Shown here one piece after another: positions 6,683 to 36,406 of a stretch of DNA of 64,000 nucleotides. The translations under genes and the position numbers were made by a program. The stretch covers positions 25,485 through 89,484 of the forward strand of contig FR890374.1 of the NCBI GenBank assembly GCA_000432835.1. The letters run 5' to 3'. The number at the start of each line of letters is the position of its first letter. Positions within the stretch are counted from its first letter, which is position 1. The DNA is from Clostridium sp. CAG:417. GTDB lineage: Bacteria; Bacillota_I; Bacilli_A; RF39; UBA660. The notes beneath the pieces are model-generated. The model did no database searches. It saw only the letters and a program-made list of their open reading frames with translations, and was not told the DNA's origin.

Positions 6683-9073
6683 ATGAGTAATCTTTATATT
6701 CCTGGATGTGCATTTTTCATTAGTTTATTATTGTTAATTTTATTTTATTCAAAGAAAAGAGTTAACAACATTGAAACAAAAATATATTTATATTTGTTGC
6801 TTACTAACGTTTTAGATACAGTATTGATGTTGATAATATTATGTCTTTATTACTTTAACTATGATTTAACTTTTCTTTCCTTTCTTAGTAAATTTGAATA
6901 TTTAGCTTTATTAGTGTGGATATGGTTGTTTTTTATTTATGTTATTTATTATTTGTTCTTTGACGGGAGAAAGGAAGAAGATAGCTTTAACAATATAACA
7001 AAAATTACGGGATTGATTACTTTTTTTGCAGCAATTTTGATTCTTTTCTTACCTGTTTCTATCTATAGTAGTGATGGCATCATGTATAGTTATGGTCCAG
7101 CTCTTAATGTCGTTTATTATTTATCACTTTTATATTCAGTTTTAGCTATTATTTTAATATTTTTCTTTAGGAAGAAATGTCTTAATAAGAAAAAGTTTCA
7201 TTTATATTCGTTTATTGTGTTAGCTTCTATATTTTTTGTTGTTAGGTATTTTCACCCCGAAGTTATGTTGATTGCATTTTTGTTATCTTATTTAGATTTA
7301 ATTATGTATTTTACTATCGAAAATCCGGATGCTAAGTTGTTGAGTGAATTACGATTAGCTAAAGAACAAGCAGAAATTGCTAATAGAGCTAAAACAGATT
7401 TTTTATCAAATATGTCTCATGAAATTAGAACACCACTGAATGCAATTGTTGGATTCAGTGATTGCATATTGGAAGAGGAAGATTTAGAGAGTGCAAAAAA
7501 TGACGCTAAAGATGTTAAGATGGCTAGTCAAAATTTGTTAGAAATAGTTAATGGAATATTAGATATTTCTAAGATTGAAGCTAATAAAATGGAAATTGTT
7601 GAGGCAAATTATGAACCACGAGATTTATTTTTAAATATTGTTAAATTAGTTAAGCCTAGAATAGGAGAAAAACCGGTAGAATTTAATGTCCATATTGCTG
7701 ATGATTTGCCGCATATTTTATATGGTGATGGAACAAAAGTAAAACAGGTTGTTACTAATATTTTAACGAATGCTTGTAAATATACTGATAAAGGTAAAGT
7801 GGATTTTGTTGTTAGTTGTATTAATCAACGTAATTTATGTAATTTGGTTATTTCAGTAAAGGATACTGGAAGAGGAATTAAAGAAGAAAATGTAGATAAG
7901 TTATTTACCAAATTTGATAGGTTAGAGGAAGATAAGAATTCTACAATAGATGGAACTGGACTTGGACTTGTTATTACTAAATCATTAGTAGAACTAATGG
8001 GTGGTAGAATAGTCGTACAGAGTAAATATGGTGTTGGTTCTAAGTTTACAATTTATCTTAGTCAACAAATAATTGAAAAAGAAAGTGGAATGACATCTAT
8101 CATTAAACCTAAAGATATGGTGTTAGATCTTAGTGATAAAAAGATATTAATAGTAGATGATAATTTACTTAATATAAAAGTGGAGGAGAAGCTTCTTTCA
8201 AAATATAGGGCTATAGTTGATGTAGCACAAAGTGGTATGGAGTGTATTCAAAAAATATATAATGGTCAAGTTTATGATATGATTTTGATGGATGATATGA
8301 TGCCTCAAATGAGTGGCGTTGAAACATTTCATAAATTAAAAGATAACCCTAATTTTAATATGACTACGATTGCACTTACAGCTAATGCTATTTCTGGAAT
8401 GAAAGAAAAATATTTAAGTGAAGGATTTGATGGTTATTTGTCTAAACCTGTAGCAAAAGATGATCTTGATCAACTTTTAAGAGAGTTTTTTAATACAGGT
8501 ACCTTAGTTACTAATTTTAATAAAAAAAGAGTACATTATGATCCATTGCCAAATGATATTTATATAATTAATAAAAGTGATATTGAAAAACAGGGTCTTA
8601 GTGTAGATGAAGCGACAGTAGAAATAGATATTAATGATTTAACTACTTTGGGTAATACAAGTACAGTTACTTTTGATATTAATTATCCAGATGATGATAT
8701 TGATAGTAATAATTATCTCAATAAAGAGTATTTGGAGCAAAATGGGATAAATGTAGATGATAGTATTTTGTTATTAGGTGATTTAGATACTTATAATGAA
8801 ACGGTTACGGGCTTTGTGGAGGAAATACCGGCAAAAGTTTCTAGATTAAAAAATGCTTTCAATAATGATGATTTAAATGGTTATGCGATTGAGGCACATT
8901 CTATTAAAAGTGATAGTAAATATTTAGGCTTTATTAATTTAGCTGAGACGTCTTTTCAACATGAAATTCATGCTAAAGAAGGAGATGTTAATTTTATAAG
9001 GGAAAATTATGAAAAATATTTAGAGGAAATTGAAAGAATTACGAAGATTTTAAAGAATTATTTGGCAAAGTAG
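6683..9073 (+). CDS. Hybrid sensor histidine kinase (multi-TM sensor, HisKA, HATPase, REC, HPt)
   Basis: About 6 N-terminal TM helices. H-box [17 protein letters not shown]. HATPase N/G boxes ([31 protein letters not shown]). Receiver domain ([11 protein letters not shown]...[13 protein letters not shown]...LSKP). C-terminal HPt ([13 protein letters not shown]). No response regulator gene is adjacent. Confidence 0.85.
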
Positions 9074-32549: not shown

Positions 32550-32636
32550 GCCTGTGTGGTGGAATTGGTAGACGCGTTGGACTCAAAATCCAATGGTAGC
32601 AATACCGTGTCGGTTCAAGTCCGACCACAGGCACCA
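32550..32636 (+). tRNA. tRNA-Leu (anticodon CAA), type II with long variable arm, CCA encoded
   Basis: Acceptor stem GCCTGTG/CACAGGC, D-arm, anticodon loop CTCAAAA giving anticodon CAA, long variable arm, T-arm GGTTCAAGTCCGACC, 3' ACCA. Confidence 0.85.
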
Positions 32637-32827
32637 GATTGATAGGAAACTCGAACTTTTTCGAGATAATATAAAAACTACTCTCAAATTAAATTGAAAG
32701 TAGTTTTATTTTTTTATTTAGAAGCAAACTTGCAAATTGATATATCAATTTTTCGTGTGTAAAAGGAAATACTCTATATAATTATTATAATTCTTTAAAA
32801 ATTATGATTTATTAGTAATCATTTCAA
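32633..32827 (+). repeat. Direct repeat copy 1 (tRNA-Leu 3' end plus downstream terminator region)
   Basis: ACCAGATTGATAGGAAACTCGAACTTTTTC is identical over 30 nt to 35084-35113. Homology continues through a terminator hairpin (AAACTACTctcaaattaaattgaaAGTAGTTT plus a T-run) and a second block, ATTTATTAGTAATCATTTCAAT, at 32806-32827. Confidence 0.8.
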
Positions 32828-33084
32828 TAAGCTTTTTAGAACTATAATTTGGTTTCCTTTATCAATTGTTGCGATTACAATAGTTCTTTTTGAAATATTA
32901 TTGTCAATTTTTATTTCATATAAGAATTTATTATTTAATTCATCTGATATGAATTCTTTAGTAGCATATTCAATCCCAAAACCGGCTTTAATTATAACTA
33001 ACGACTTCTAGTTTTGAATTTATTACATTATTATTTTTATAGAATATATGATATAATATCGGTGAGTTAAAAAAGGAGACGATA

Positions 33085-33918
33085 ATGAAAAATATAATAT
33101 TAGACACAGATTTATATAATGAAATAGATGACCAAATTGCTTTAGCATATGTATTAAAATCAAAAGATGAATTAAATTTAAAAGCAGTTACAATTGCGCC
33201 ATTTACCAAAGGTGAATATAATACAAAAACGTCAATTGATAAAAGTTATGAAGTAGCTAAGAAAATATTTAAAATGTGCAATGAACAAAATGATAAGATA
33301 ATATTTAAAGGGGCTACAGAATATTTTACAAACGATTCAACTCAAACCAATGCAGCAGTTAATGAGATAATACAAATAGCTAAAAAAAATGATAAAACAT
33401 ATATTTTAAGTATAGGATGTATAACTAATATTGCATTAGCAATAAAAAAGGACTCATCAATAATAAACAAAATAGAAGTAATTTGGTTAGGTACTAACTT
33501 TTTATTTATGAAAAATGATGATTTTAATTTTAGACAAGACGTTGAAGCTGTTAGATATGTATTGGATAGTAAAGTAAAAATAACTATAATTCCTGTTTAT
33601 CCGGTAAGCTATGGACTAATGATTTCAAAATATGAATTAGAAAGTAGAATAAGAAATTCTAACAAATTGTGTAATTATTTTTGTGATATATTTACAGATG
33701 ATTACGGTACTGAAAAAATAAGAAGAGTTATATGGGATATTAGCGCTATAGCATATATGATTAATAAAGAATGGTTTGAAACAATGGAAATAAGTTGTCC
33801 TAGAATAAAAGAGGATACATCATTTAAATTAACGAAATTTAGACATAAAATAAAATTTGTCCAAAATCTTGATAGTACTGAAATATATGATGATTTATTT
33901 TCAAAAATTACGAGGTGA
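33085..33918 (+). CDS. Inosine-uridine-preferring nucleoside hydrolase family protein (IUNH)
   Basis: N-terminal ILDTDLYNEIDDQIALAYVL, which is the DxDxxxDD aspartate cluster of nucleoside N-ribohydrolases. Confidence 0.7.
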   Translation: MKNIILDTDLYNEIDDQIALAYVLKSKDELNLKAVTIAPFTKGEYNTKTSIDKSYEVAKKIFKMCNEQNDKIIFKGATEYFTNDSTQTNAAVNEIIQIAKKNDKTYILSIGCITNIALAIKKDSSIINKIEVIWLGTNFLFMKNDDFNFRQDVEAVRYVLDSKVKITIIPVYPVSYGLMISKYELESRIRNSNKLCNYFCDIFTDDYGTEKIRRVIWDISAIAYMINKEWFETMEISCPRIKEDTSFKLTKFRHKIKFVQNLDSTEIYDDLFSKITR

Positions 33919-33924
33919 GGTATA

Positions 33925-34396
33925 TATGAAAATAAAATATTATGGTGATAAAATTGAAAAAAGCACTAGAGCAATATCATTATGTGGACCAACTCCTAGA
34001 AATAATAAAGTAACTAGTTGGAGAAAAGAAGCTTTGAATATATTACAAAATATTAATTATGATGGAATTGTGTATGTTCCGGAGCTAAAAGATGAAACGC
34101 CAGTATTTAAGACAAAGGATGAACAAGTATCTTGGGAGAGAGATTGTTATATGAATTCAAATGTATTATTGTTTTGGGTACCAAGGAAATTTCCATCAAT
34201 GCTAGGCTTAACTACAAATGTAGAATTTGGTTATTGGCTAAAAAGTAAAAAATGCATATATGGTAGACCAGATGGTGCTTATAGAACACACTATTTGGAT
34301 TGGTTATATAATTTAGAATATAATAAAAATCCAATAAATTCATTAGAAGAACTGTTAAAACAAGCAGTAAAAATGAGTAAAGGAGAGCAACTATGA
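33925..34396 (+). CDS. Nucleoside 2-deoxyribosyltransferase-like / dNMP N-glycosidase-fold protein
   Basis: ATG follows GAGGTGAGG. ISLCGPTP matches the YxAGPxF nucleoside-binding motif of the NDT/Rcl fold. TNVEFGYWL places a Glu where the catalytic nucleophile sits. Confidence 0.55.
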
Positions 34397-34962
34397 AAAA
34401 TATAATGATATTTGGGATATGTAGAACCGGGAAGACTACCTTTTCAAAAATGATACAAAAAGAATATAATAACTATCAAATTATAGAAGTTGACACAATC
34501 ATTTCTGCATTACAAAAAACTGTTCCTAATGTTCCAATTGGATTTATTCACGATAATTTAAAAGAAAATAGATTGCCGGAATTTTTAAATTTGTTTATAC
34601 AAAAGAATATTAATAAAAACGGGAAAGAACTAGGTTTTATTATAAATGGGGATTCTATCTTGCCAGAAGATTTATCTAAATATTTTGATTTAAAAGATAT
34701 GATTGTTTATTATTTTGTAACTGAAAAGTTATCTCCTGAACAAATTCTAGAAAATTGTAGGAAGTTTGATTCAAAAGAAGAATGGACTACTAGAAGGTCC
34801 GATGATGAATTATTAAATCATTTTAAATTTTATAAAGATATAGAAAAGAAAATTATAAAAGATTGTAAGATGTATAATATAAAATGCATTGATACATCTG
34901 AAAACAGGCAAATATTATTTAACCAGTTATTGGATGAGGTAAAATGTGAGTTGAATATATAA
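34393..34962 (+). CDS. P-loop NTPase, (deoxy)nucleoside/nucleotide kinase-like
   Basis: Walker A IFGICRTGKTT; about 190 aa, typical of small nucleoside or NMP kinases; coupled to the upstream gene by overlapping stop/start. Confidence 0.55.
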   Translation: MKNIMIFGICRTGKTTFSKMIQKEYNNYQIIEVDTIISALQKTVPNVPIGFIHDNLKENRLPEFLNLFIQKNINKNGKELGFIINGDSILPEDLSKYFDLKDMIVYYFVTEKLSPEQILENCRKFDSKEEWTTRRSDDELLNHFKFYKDIEKKIIKDCKMYNIKCIDTSENRQILFNQLLDEVKCELNI

Positions 34963-35083
34963 ATTTTATGTAATAGTAAAGCTTATTCCAATTTATAAAA
35001 AATATGATATACTTTAGTAAATTGATTGATATTTGTATCAACCTTTATGAGAGCCAAAAGCTGTATATATCTACTTTATTGGT

Positions 35084-35226
35084 ACCAGATTGATAGGAAA
35101 CTCGAACTTTTTCAAGATACTCTCAAATTAAATTGAAAGTAGTTTTATTTTGAAGCTTAATAATATATGAGTAAATTAATATATTGTTAAGTGTGTATAA
35201 AATAATTTATTAGTAATCATTTCAAT
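35084..35226 (+). repeat. Direct repeat copy 2 (degenerate duplicate of the tRNA-Leu 3' flank)
   Basis: Same 30-nt core as copy 1, a truncated hairpin (AAGATACTctcaaattaaattgaaAGTAGTTT) and ATTTATTAGTAATCATTTCAAT at 35205-35226. It lacks the 12-nt block AATATAAAAACT of copy 1. No intact tRNA body precedes it (only GGTACCA). Confidence 0.8.
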
Positions 35227-35268
35227 TTATTTTTAATATTCAAATGATGTTATGATGGAGGTAAGATT

Positions 35269-35925
35269 ATGAATTTAGAAAAAGGAAAAGTTAGTAAAAA
35301 ACAAAAAATAGTTATTTTTGATTTGTTTGGTGTAATTATAGATAGTCATTCTAAAACAAAATATAATGTACATGATGCTAGAAGAGATATAGCAAATGAT
35401 TGTAAATTTGATATAAATATATTTTCAATGTTTTTTAAGGATGCAAAATTTGGTATAACAAATGGAAAAGATTTTGATGATTTAATAAAAGAATATATAA
35501 ATAAATGTAAATCAAATATAGATATTAACAGATTTAAGGAATCATATATAAAATATTATGGAAAAGTTTCTTGTTATGAGAAGGTTATTAAATTTATAGA
35601 AAATTTACAAGATAAAAATTATAAGACAGCAATTTTATCTAAATTGTGTGTTTTGGATAAAATATATTTAGAGAAAAATATAAATCTAAGTAGGTTTGAT
35701 AATTTATTTTTTTCTTGTGATTTAGGAATGGAAAAGCCGGATGTTAAAGTATTTGAATATGTATCTAGGGAAACTGGAATTGAAGGGAAAAATATTTTAT
35801 TTATAGATGATAGTATTAAAAATATAGATGCCGCAAGAGAGCTAGGCTGGAATGTATGCAATGCAACAGGCGATGAATTTGATAAAATAAAAGAAACAGT
35901 GGAAGAATTTTTGATGAAGGATTAA
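35269..35925 (+). CDS. HAD-superfamily hydrolase (phosphatase / nucleotidase-like)
   Basis: Motif I IVIFDLFGVII, with nucleophile Asp in the DxF variant of DxDG; motif IV region FIDDSIKNIDAARELG. Confidence 0.65.
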   Translation: MNLEKGKVSKKQKIVIFDLFGVIIDSHSKTKYNVHDARRDIANDCKFDINIFSMFFKDAKFGITNGKDFDDLIKEYINKCKSNIDINRFKESYIKYYGKVSCYEKVIKFIENLQDKNYKTAILSKLCVLDKIYLEKNINLSRFDNLFFSCDLGMEKPDVKVFEYVSRETGIEGKNILFIDDSIKNIDAARELGWNVCNATGDEFDKIKETVEEFLMKD

Positions 35926-35939
35926 AGGTGTATTTATGC

Positions 35940-36340
35940 GGATTGGAGTAGAGATGGTGTTTTGACAAATGACGATGATTATATTTTAGTAAATATTGTT
36001 ATGAAAATAATCTGAATGGATTTGATAATGCTAATCTGTATGAATATAGAAAACTAAGTTGGAATGAAGATGTAATCAACGATTATAGGAAAAAATATTT
36101 TTTAAATTATGTAAAAAATAAACCTGCACAAAGTTCGCAAGCGATGTTATAAAAAGACTAAGACTTGGTGGACATGAAATATATATTATATCTGCACGAT
36201 ATAAAACATCTGAAAATAAATGGTCATAGTGTAAGAAAATGTACGCTAGAGGGGTTAAGAAAAAACAATATAGAGGTAAAATGTAAATTAGCTGGAAAAC
36301 ATAAAATGAGGATGAAACATTAATTATAATGTGGTTTATC
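35940..36340 (+). pseudogene. Decayed HAD-like nucleotidase/phosphatase gene (multiple frameshifts and stops)
   Basis: Homologous pieces sit in three frames: DWSRDGVLTNDDDYILVNIV; YENNLNGFDNANLYEYRKLSWNEDVINDYRKKYFLNYVKNKPAQS; ASDVIKRLRLGGHEIYIISARYKTSENKWS; TLEGLRKNNIEVKCKLAGKHK. Each is cut by stops. It looks like a single ancestral ORF of about 130 aa. Confidence 0.55.
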
Positions 36341-36406
36341 TAGTTTAATAATTAATTTACTTATTAGTGTTATGTGTGTATAATTGTTACAGAAAGAAGT
36401 GATAGG

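Follow-up and report, generated by a model that had tools for sequence, protein, structure and literature searches.

A recombinase-less islet behind a tRNA-Leu gene of a gut bacterium and its probable origin from a family of serine-recombinase elements

The window analysed here, 64,000 nucleotides of the genome of Clostridium sp. CAG:417 (contig FR890374.1, positions 25,485 to 89,484), hosts a small accessory islet directly downstream of a tRNA-Leu(CAA) gene. The islet extends from about 32637 to 35087 (positions are those of the window), and is probably a decayed, recombinase-less derivative of an integrative and mobilisable element of the large serine recombinase (LSR) type, inserted at the sequence GCACCA|G of the tRNA gene. 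Both arms of the element, both crossover copies and a cargo operon are retained. Three genes of the complete relatives, called here orf91, LSR and Mob, are missing, and the islet therefore should be unable to move by itself. An earlier note on this DNA had interpreted the region as the footprint of integration at a tRNA 3' end, followed by decay. The notion of site-specific recombination at the tRNA-Leu 3' end, with subsequent loss of the recombinase, appears largely right; the long repeat bordering the islet is not simply a footprint of the insertion. The analysis explains this puzzling repeat, and identifies the accessory genes of the window.

Borders of the islet and the arm family

A single tRNA gene, tRNA-Leu(CAA) at 32550-32636 on the plus strand, is found by ARAGORN in the window; it sits downstream of scpA/scpB, and is the putative chromosomal target. 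No second tRNA body accompanies the repeat, as the earlier note had remarked. The sequence at the end of the gene recurs 2451 bp downstream. The 30-nt core, ACCAGATTGATAGGAAACTCGAACTTTTTC, is indeed exact at 32633-32662 and 35084-35113, and occurs twice in 64 kb against zero occurrences expected from shuffled sequences. The true start of the repeat is GG(C/T)ACCAG, at 32630 and 35081 (GGCACCAG versus GGTACCAG). Only 6-7 nt of the repeat belong to the tRNA, the remainder being located downstream of the gene.

Copy 1 opens with GCACCAG (32631-32637), the last 6 nt of the tRNA plus one residue, which is the putative crossover, or overlap, sequence. A type-A arm follows (GATTGATAGGAAACTCGAACTTTTTCGAG, 32637-32666), which is exactly repeated and contains a small hairpin at 32650-32665, and then a palindromic intrinsic terminator, AAAACTACT...AGTAGTTTT plus a T-run (32674-32719). 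The latter would serve tRNA-Leu and, on the other strand, a former LysR gene. The 3' 34 nt of the terminator recur in copy 2 as an identical hairpin block (32679-32712 and 35118-35151). The 12 nt at 32667-32678 are absent from copy 2, where the left half of the terminator stem is thus largely lost, as proposed at first inspection. The copy-1 trailer may form two hairpins (-18.9 kcal/mol, z = -3.0 against shuffles), while the copy-2 trailer (-7.8 kcal/mol, z = +0.6) folds no better than shuffled sequences. Further on, the copies differ by a 41-nt spacer indel, and share a second block (block 2), exact at 32807-32828 and 35205-35226. The hairpin and the second block described earlier are thus both present, the latter being shifted by 1 nt relative to the position first assigned to it in copy 1 (32806-32827). 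If one mismatch is allowed, block 2 is 25 nt long (32804-32828 and 35202-35226). It includes a dyad, ATGATT-N7-AATCAT, in copy 1, with ATAATT in copy 2. Twenty-four of 25 residues are kept between copies, in a spacer ~25-30% diverged and at the end of a dead LysR gene, and such conservation could denote an operator, a hairpin, or gene conversion.

The other border, also read on the plus strand, is made by an inverted repeat (TTGATTGATATTTGTATCAA, 35022-35041), by a right-end half-site called P-I arm (AAAAGCTGTATATATCTACTTTATTG, 35056-35081), which is found once only in the window, and by GTACCAG (35082-35088). This is plausibly the second crossover copy, modified by one C-to-T change; strain L002 keeps GCACCAG at this site. 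In copy 2 of the flank (35088-35226), arm A2 (35088-35117) precedes the truncated terminator (35118-35151), after which come a diverged spacer and, at 35202-35226, the ~8 terminal codons of LysR. The GC content of the islet (0.21-0.28) is slightly below that of the flanks (0.27-0.32).

The locus was compared in ~45 conspecific contigs sharing identical ScpB, hydrolase or HAD proteins, many of which are human-gut metagenome scaffolds of ~1.0-1.3 Mb. The exact ScpB of the window is indexed in ~3000 assembly blocks. Each of the sampled contigs carries the islet, and in two strains, L005 and L100, extra DNA is found between tRNA and islet. In L005, and likewise in L097, this DNA is a 6288-bp element (L005:8709-14996) having at both borders GCACCAG, exactly the sequence found at 32631-32637 of the window. 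The element encodes a 91-aa open reading frame (orf91), a 626-aa LSR (L005:9385-11265; Resolvase, Recombinase and Zn-ribbon domains in Pfam), a Mob_Pre relaxase, an S11 peptidase and VanZ. The layout is therefore integrative and mobilisable element (IME), GCACCAG, islet, GTACCAG, HAD. The S11 peptidase/beta-lactamase-2-like and VanZ-like cargo genes may provide cell-wall or glycopeptide-related accessory functions. The right end of a different element abuts the same GCACCAG in L100, the left end and recombinase region lying outside the fetched DNA. This element (L100:1-3344) has a P-II-type right arm, and encodes an AAA_13 ATPase, an ASCH-domain protein and two unknown proteins. Since elements adjoin the same GCACCAG in L005 and L100, the site plausibly is a live integration site in this species.

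The type-A core was scanned in viral and metagenome collections (loci L105-L227, among which L110, L126, L133, L144, L178, L224), and 96 CCA-adjacent copies were found. They follow genes for tRNA-Gly, Thr, Leu(CAA), Leu(TAG), Arg, Cys, Phe and Ala, and tmRNA-like 3' ends as well. A homolog of orf91 lies within 400 nt of the arm in 37 of the 66 informative copies outside this species, and an LSR gene starts within 1200 nt in 31 of the 66. These LSRs are 43-78% identical to that of L005, and Mob is often the next gene. The order of complete elements is tRNA-CCA, a ~30-nt arm with a replacement terminator, orf91, LSR, often Mob_Pre, cargo, an inverted repeat, a right arm, and a 6-nt copy of the tRNA end. 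The ~30-nt arm may be of type A (GATTGATAGGAAACTCGAAC...) or type B. At the far ends, the right arm is followed by a copy of the last 6 nt of the element's own tRNA (GCACCA, GCTCCA, others), and then by a different trailer. The 30-nt core, present after many different tRNAs, appears to be the conserved tRNA-proximal arm of this element family. The T-arm and the 3' acceptor strand of tRNA-Leu would represent the B half of the attachment site.

The right end of the islet leads to the same elements. The P-I arm fits the consensus AAAAGTTGTAGATAnCTAC...|GC(A/T)CCA of right-end half-sites, found at L002, L084, L045, L053, L117, L124, L157, L171, L186, L202 and L219. L084 and the LSR-Mob right ends of L171, L186, L157, L111 and L117 have comparable inverted repeats, equally distant from the junction. 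Overall, the AAAAGCTGTATATATCTACTTTATTG, GTACCA and inverted repeat region of the islet aligns with the complete orf91-LSR-Mob elements of L171, L186 and L157, and also with the recombinase-less islets L045 (hosting a single HAD gene), L053, L117 and L084. Recombinase-less islets sharing the arms include L045, L053 and L024. The latter (L024:2848-2970) is a 117-nt empty element located after tRNA-Leu(CAA), in which a type-B arm with terminator, a right arm, a second GCACCA and a type-A trailer follow each other; effectively, it looks like an integrated attP lacking cargo.

Junction identity in complete relatives is limited to 6-8 nt, as the 7-nt GCACCAG of L005. The right arm, GCACCA and the type-A arm jointly form a ~56-bp dyad, AAAAGTT (26 nt), GCACCA, (24 nt) AACTTTT. 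An imperfect dyad of ~56 bp around the crossover is what is expected of an LSR attP, although the assignment is here read from sequence alone. Proteins encoded by orf91, LSR and Mob had no tblastn match in the 64-kb window, and Pfam detected in the islet only genes of nucleoside-metabolism type, in keeping with the claim that no recombinase is left in or near the islet. A possible oriT remnant (an inverted repeat plus GTGTGTA, found in both spacers) was rejected, because complete elements contain nothing similar.

The surroundings of tRNA-Leu(CAA) were also monitored in 63 related species, taken from species-representative contigs (the species of the window is not in the set, and the best ScpB is 75% identical). 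The scpB to tRNA-Leu(CAA) order is kept in most of them, and the 2.4-8.6 kb between tRNA-Leu and the methyltransferase/Rlu genes vary. Trailers following tRNA-Leu are mostly plain, unrelated terminators, and a subset are type-A or type-B arms, the type-A consensus being GATTGATAG[G/T]AAACTCGAAC....

These data bear on the possibility that the repeats belong to a genome-wide family of tRNA trailers and terminators kept similar by function, and are thus uninformative on insertion. The type-A module does follow many different tRNA genes, and provides a perfect terminator with no element downstream at some loci (L161, L029). Yet, orf91 and/or LSR lie downstream of the majority of informative modules, the module is also found after right arms bearing 6-nt copies of tRNA ends, most relatives have unrelated terminators after tRNA-Leu, and the copies in the window share far more than the module, namely a specific terminator, a spacer and the end of LysR. 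Of the alternatives weighed here this is the least credible. In the earlier note, the discovery that the repeats are a common family was expected to argue against tRNA-targeted insertion. A common family does exist, but it is strictly tied to tRNA 3' ends and element ends, and for this reason it rather supports targeting.

The LysR remnant and the duplicated flank

Crossover by an LSR explains only a 6-8-nt identity, not repeats of 80-200 bp. The terminator, the spacer and the LysR 3' end are all repeated, and therefore either a duplicated flank or tandem related units are required. A cryptic integrase had been suspected on the minus strand at 32830-33080. The sequence is instead the C-terminal remnant of a LysR-type regulator, and a decayed integrase is ruled out. 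The pseudogene (32802-33044, minus strand) corresponds to residues ~208-292 of a 292-aa protein, i.e. the C-terminal ~85 codons, altered by a 16-nt deletion and a frameshift. An intact LysR, 292 aa long and carrying HTH_1 and LysR_substrate domains, is encoded directly after scpB at the related locus L035. By tblastn, identity to this protein is 59% over 46 aa for the remnant of the window (E = 3e-13), and 59% over 71 aa for the less decayed remnant of strain L100 (E = 9e-24). Block 2 encodes the terminal LysR residues, I-E-M-I-T-N-K-S-stop. Copy 2 retains only these ~8 codons, and then joins the promoter region of HAD. The repeated unit thus plausibly consists of crossover sequence, arm, terminator, spacer and LysR 3' end.

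No intact parent of the remnant was found in a database of 5.8 billion proteins, all 34 matches being fragments of 51-147 aa (P0241-P0274; loci L233, L236, L237). These relatives are chromosomal pseudogenes with no arms nearby. The L233 copy is nearly full length but frameshifted. Several small-genome lineages seem to undergo a parallel decay of this regulator. A similarity of the peptide LYHIFY to the LysR N-terminus, which would imply an internal deletion, is a coincidence, since the sequence overlaps the -10 region of the hydrolase gene, also conserved in L084.

We favour the view that the arm-terminator-LysR stretch represents the native flank of the locus, because L035 has an intact LysR right after scpB, other LysR relatives are armless chromosomal pseudogenes, and LysR is found beside the arm in no other type-A element among more than 60 loci. 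According to this view, the insertion would have displaced the flank that is now copy 2, whose LysR part was later shortened to 8 codons and became joined to the HAD region; copy 1 would be a second copy of the flank, which ended up at the tRNA-proximal end of the element. Copy 1 may have been generated by aberrant excision of an element that took flanking DNA along, and re-integrated at GCACCAG or within the homologous flank. Equivalently, a tandem duplication may have taken place at the crossover site, with deletions coming later. The former process recalls specialised transducing phages (lambda gal/bio), in which aberrant excision carries adjacent DNA, and re-integration leaves the flank on both sides; no phage is involved here, and the analogy for the flank duplication is drawn from anatomy only. 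The trailer carried by the element would restore the tRNA terminator, leaving a usable target, and later elements would stack beside the tRNA, pushing older ones outward. The excised chromosome should feature a junction between tRNA end and copy 2, ...CCGACCACAGGCACCAGATTGATAGGAAACTCGAACTTTTTCAAGATACTCTC, and a circular islet a junction between P-I arm and copy 1, ...ATATCTACTTTATTGG(C/T)ACCAGATTGATAGGAAACTCGAACTTTTTCGAGATAATATAAAAAC; the 12-nt indel would distinguish both from the resident junctions.

Strains differ at copy 2. In L002, L003 and L007 homology to the window breaks off within copy 2, at 35111, and is regained at 36335. The strain-variable segment (35112-36334, plus strand) includes the HAD hydrolase gene (35269-35925) plus ~410 nt; instead of the HAD region, L002-type strains have ~720 nt of other DNA. 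Copy 2 would thus be a polymorphic recombination junction and, as strains differ at this point, the locus is better described as an array than as one islet in a pristine site. The ~410 nt between the HAD and methyltransferase genes (35926-36335) contain no intact open reading frame, and resemble frameshifted coding remnants; a terminator-like hairpin is found on the minus strand at 36122-36142. The idea that the interval is an NT5C-type nucleotidase pseudogene was dropped, as its conceptual translation has no Pfam match. A 19-nt direct repeat (17/19 identities) surrounds the HAD segment (35182-35200, TATTGTTAAGTGTGTATAA; 36365-36383, TAGTGTTATGTGTGTATAA), and may be due to chance in AT-rich DNA, or mark a deletion/insertion boundary.

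The array could also have been formed by two sibling elements, one (E1) carrying the nucleoside trio described below and the other (E2) the HAD gene, successively integrated at the tRNA. Copies 1 and 2 would then be two left ends, the arm-terminator-LysR stretch would be element DNA, and LysR part of the cargo. Tandem stacks of elements are common (L053, L119, L143, L111), the L053 element combines a type-A arm at its start with a P-I arm at its end, as E1 does, and L002-type strains hold at copy 2 the canonical left-end module which elsewhere precedes orf91-LSR. This main alternative clashes with the lack of LysR in all other type-A elements, with the chromosomal residence of LysR relatives, one of which is right after scpB, and with the structure of E2, in which neither a recognisable right arm nor a third crossover copy precedes the methyltransferase gene. 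It is judged unlikely.

The cargo cassette and where it resides

The remnant of LysR and the cassette meet at ~33029-33044. Homology to other genomes begins at 33029 (L084) or 33019 (L091), and the left limit of the travelling cassette, with the hydrolase promoter region, is set at 33019-33084. Three tightly coupled genes follow on the plus strand. Gene 1 (33085-33918) encodes a 277-aa nucleoside hydrolase (NH) of the inosine-uridine type (Pfam IU_nuc_hydro, E = 1.9e-25), related to the purine nucleosidase IunH-2 in PDB (E = 2e-11). Gene 2 (33926-34396) encodes a 156-aa nucleoside 2-deoxyribosyltransferase-like protein (NDT; Pfam Nuc_deoxyri_tr2, E = 3.9e-10), which has no PDB relative by sequence. 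Gene 3 (34393-34962) encodes a 189-aa P-loop kinase-like protein, having only weak matches to AAA_17/AAA_18 and kinase families, and is linked to genes 1 and 2 in all of L084, L091 and L101. The identity of hydrolase homologs steps down gradually (99, 90, 87, 82, 74, 70, 68%). Many homologs, 55% identical, are ~477-aa fusions of the hydrolase to NT5C, a 5'(3')-deoxyribonucleotidase (P0086, P0092-P0120), which would point this hydrolase subfamily to deoxynucleotide/nucleoside metabolism. On the basis of weak family matches, nucleoside or deoxynucleoside salvage is the most likely role of the cargo in this nutritionally dependent gut bacterium, whose genome is ~1.2 Mb.

A trio with a 90%-identical NH is present in L084-L087, where the neighbourhood is unrelated. 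Here the cassette is directly 3' of a previously uncalled tRNA-Leu(TAG) gene. DNA homology covers the window from ~33029 to 35087, thus including the kinase gene, the inverted repeat and the P-I arm, up to GGCACCA. The L084 cassette is bordered by GCACCAAT at 6874-6881 and 9011-9018, an 8-nt shared identity. It starts, on the left, with a short type-B arm, ATGAAGTATCTGTTCGAACTTTTATAG, resembling the one of the L005 element, and lacks LysR. No empty site for the L084 copy was found, orthologs of the downstream 399-aa gene being located in unrelated neighbourhoods. No full-length element carrying this cargo occurs among the loci compared, and the left end of the islet is the LysR/flank block, not an orf91-LSR remnant. 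NH, NDT and HAD are all missing at this locus in the 63 related species, and LysR is missing in 62 of them. The presence of cassette and right arm at another tRNA gene, and relatives devoid of these genes here, uphold the proposal that the three coupled genes are acquired DNA.

The trio has one more type of neighbourhood. In L091 (7001-13876) a 68%-identical trio adjoins a reverse transcriptase (RVT_1), Abi_2, and an AbiA-like RT-HEPN protein, in what resembles a defence island. NDT-like domains are known as retron effectors. The trio was considered as a known defence system, and PADLOC gave no match.

These comparisons weigh on the idea that the trailer was duplicated locally by a process that is not site-specific, such as slippage or unequal crossing-over, next to a native trio that would be an old target operon of LysR. 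LysR (minus strand) and the trio (plus strand) are divergent, like a classical LysR-target pair, the LysR gene following scpB in L035 is divergent from a distant kinase-like gene, and the islet is fixed in the species. Copy 2, however, begins exactly at the crossover heptamer, after the right arm and inverted repeat of the element family, and cassette and arm are found at a different tRNA-Leu in another genome. LysR is absent here from 62 of the 63 relatives, and NH/NDT from all. Moreover, the LysR/cassette junction is the limit of homology to both L084 and L091, and the P-I arm is absent from L091 and L101. A local duplication is therefore very improbable.

Several observations weigh against the derivation of the islet from an LSR element. 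The earlier note had expected an empty site in related genomes. None was found among the ~45 conspecific contigs, retrieved by ScpB, hydrolase and HAD look-ups and metagenome matches, all of which carry the islet; insertion is thus deduced by comparison, and not from a presence/absence pair. The link to LSRs is based on arm homology of ~26-60 nt and on association, the window being devoid of recombinase, and the exact path to the flank duplication is deduced rather than demonstrated. The trio is found without arms or tRNA in L091 and L101, and should therefore travel, or reside, also independently of arm ends. In the sister species L161 a type-A-like trailer follows tRNA-Leu with no sign of an element in 3.7 kb. 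Type A may thus also be a native trailer, which blurs whether copy 1 is element arm or flank. The kinase-like protein faced by LysR in L035 is 26% identical, which hints at LysR and kinase as an old native pair. Lastly, three blocks are perfectly conserved although the spacer around them is diverged by ~25-30%, which might reflect selection or gene conversion.

Wider meaning and comparison with known systems

The tRNA-targeting LSR family in gut bacteria is large, barely documented, and an unusual variant; no description of it was found in the searchable literature. Chances look about even that the islet is one of the products of a large and virtually uncharacterised superfamily of mobilisable elements with serine recombinases in small-genome gut Bacilli, in a scenario to be taken jointly with the following features. 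The T-arm and CCA end of tRNA or tmRNA genes would be the chromosomal att half, and elements would replace the tRNA trailer and terminator with their own arm. A usable target would be regenerated, hence the stacking. Cargo-only cassettes would be shed with both arms, and may move in trans, and the arms may have originated as tRNA trailers that were captured. The T-arm and CCA end are the most conserved sequence in biology, and the use of such a target would explain how one family is found at Gly, Thr, Leu, Arg, Cys, Phe, Ala and tmRNA genes.

Serine integrases are prized tools for genome engineering and, to our knowledge, are thought not to target tRNA genes. A sizeable natural LSR family with defined ~56-bp attP-like sites, and targets built on the tRNA T-arm and CCA end, would, if confirmed, be useful to engineer uncultured gut Firmicutes, and would revise the view of tRNA targeting as a trait of tyrosine integrases. 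The growth and decay of islands may be followed along a natural series, which runs from complete elements through accreted tandems and cargo-only islets to an empty pair of arms, 117 nt long. The operon for NH, NDT-like and kinase proteins seemingly moved between genomes and tRNA genes, and became fixed in an abundant gut bacterium of ~1.2 Mb, to which nucleoside salvage plausibly matters.

Compared to classical tRNA genomic islands, the islet has neither a tyrosine integrase nor its remnant at one end, while complete relatives carry LSRs. Similarly, the repeats do not include a substantial 3' part of the tRNA, but 6-7 nt only. The presence of an LSR gene beside the att arm, typical of LSR elements, is a feature of the arm-sharing relatives (L005 and dozens of metagenome loci) and not of the islet, which should therefore be regarded as a derivative rather than as a full member of the class. 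Other traits of LSR elements are found, such as the very short junction identity (7 nt in L005, 8 nt in L084, ~6 nt in others) and a candidate ~50-bp attP with an imperfect dyad, made by P-I arm, GCACCA and type-A arm. The L005 element resembles the serine IMEs of Firmicutes (Tn4451/TndX; streptococcal Ser_1-4) in carrying one LSR at one end and a Mob-type relaxase, in size (~6 kb), and in very short junction identity. Published serine IMEs are reported to integrate within protein-coding genes, which they disrupt (PMC5357655, PMC5704250). In contrast, the family described here inserts after the CCA of tRNA or tmRNA genes with no disruption, supplying a new trailer and terminator. In a computational survey, elements with serine integrases at t(m)RNA genes were 14 out of 297, and the use of t(m)RNA genes by these enzymes was described as not reported before, and as requiring experimental proof (Mageeney et al. 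2020; PMC7192596).

The array is also reminiscent of the tycheposons of Prochlorococcus (bioRxiv 10.1101/2020.12.28.424599), in which elements integrate serially at tRNA genes, older ones are pushed outward, and degenerate cargo-only remnants form a variable island. The likeness is in the layout, and relatedness at the sequence level is not expected. Tycheposons carry partial-tRNA repeats, replication modules and, in 910 of 937 elements, a lineage-specific tyrosine recombinase (same source), whereas the elements considered here are of the LSR class and reside in gut Bacilli.

The closest parallel is with cis-mobilisable elements (CIMEs) and the tandem accretion of integrative and conjugative elements, or IMEs, at one att site, dealt with by Pavlovic et al. 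2004 and Bellanger et al. 2011, and reviewed in PMC5704250. The islet has borders of attL and attR type, made on the left by tRNA, GCACCAG and type-A arm, and on the right by inverted repeat, P-I arm and GTACCAG. Like a CIME, it is devoid of its own recombinase and of transfer or mobilisation genes, and shares the 3' end of a conserved gene with other elements, decayed or intact, arranged in tandem. The integration of an incoming IME beside the islet in L005 matches the IME-CIME accretion reviewed in PMC5704250. Described CIMEs depend on tyrosine integrases, and their repeats take in a sizeable portion of the target gene; the relatives of the islet encode LSRs and share 6-8 nt, new arrivals insert on the tRNA side, and mobilisation in cis is putative. 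The islet can thus be viewed as a CIME-like remnant in a tandem array, and as such belongs to a known kind of structure; its parent family is unusual and poorly documented.

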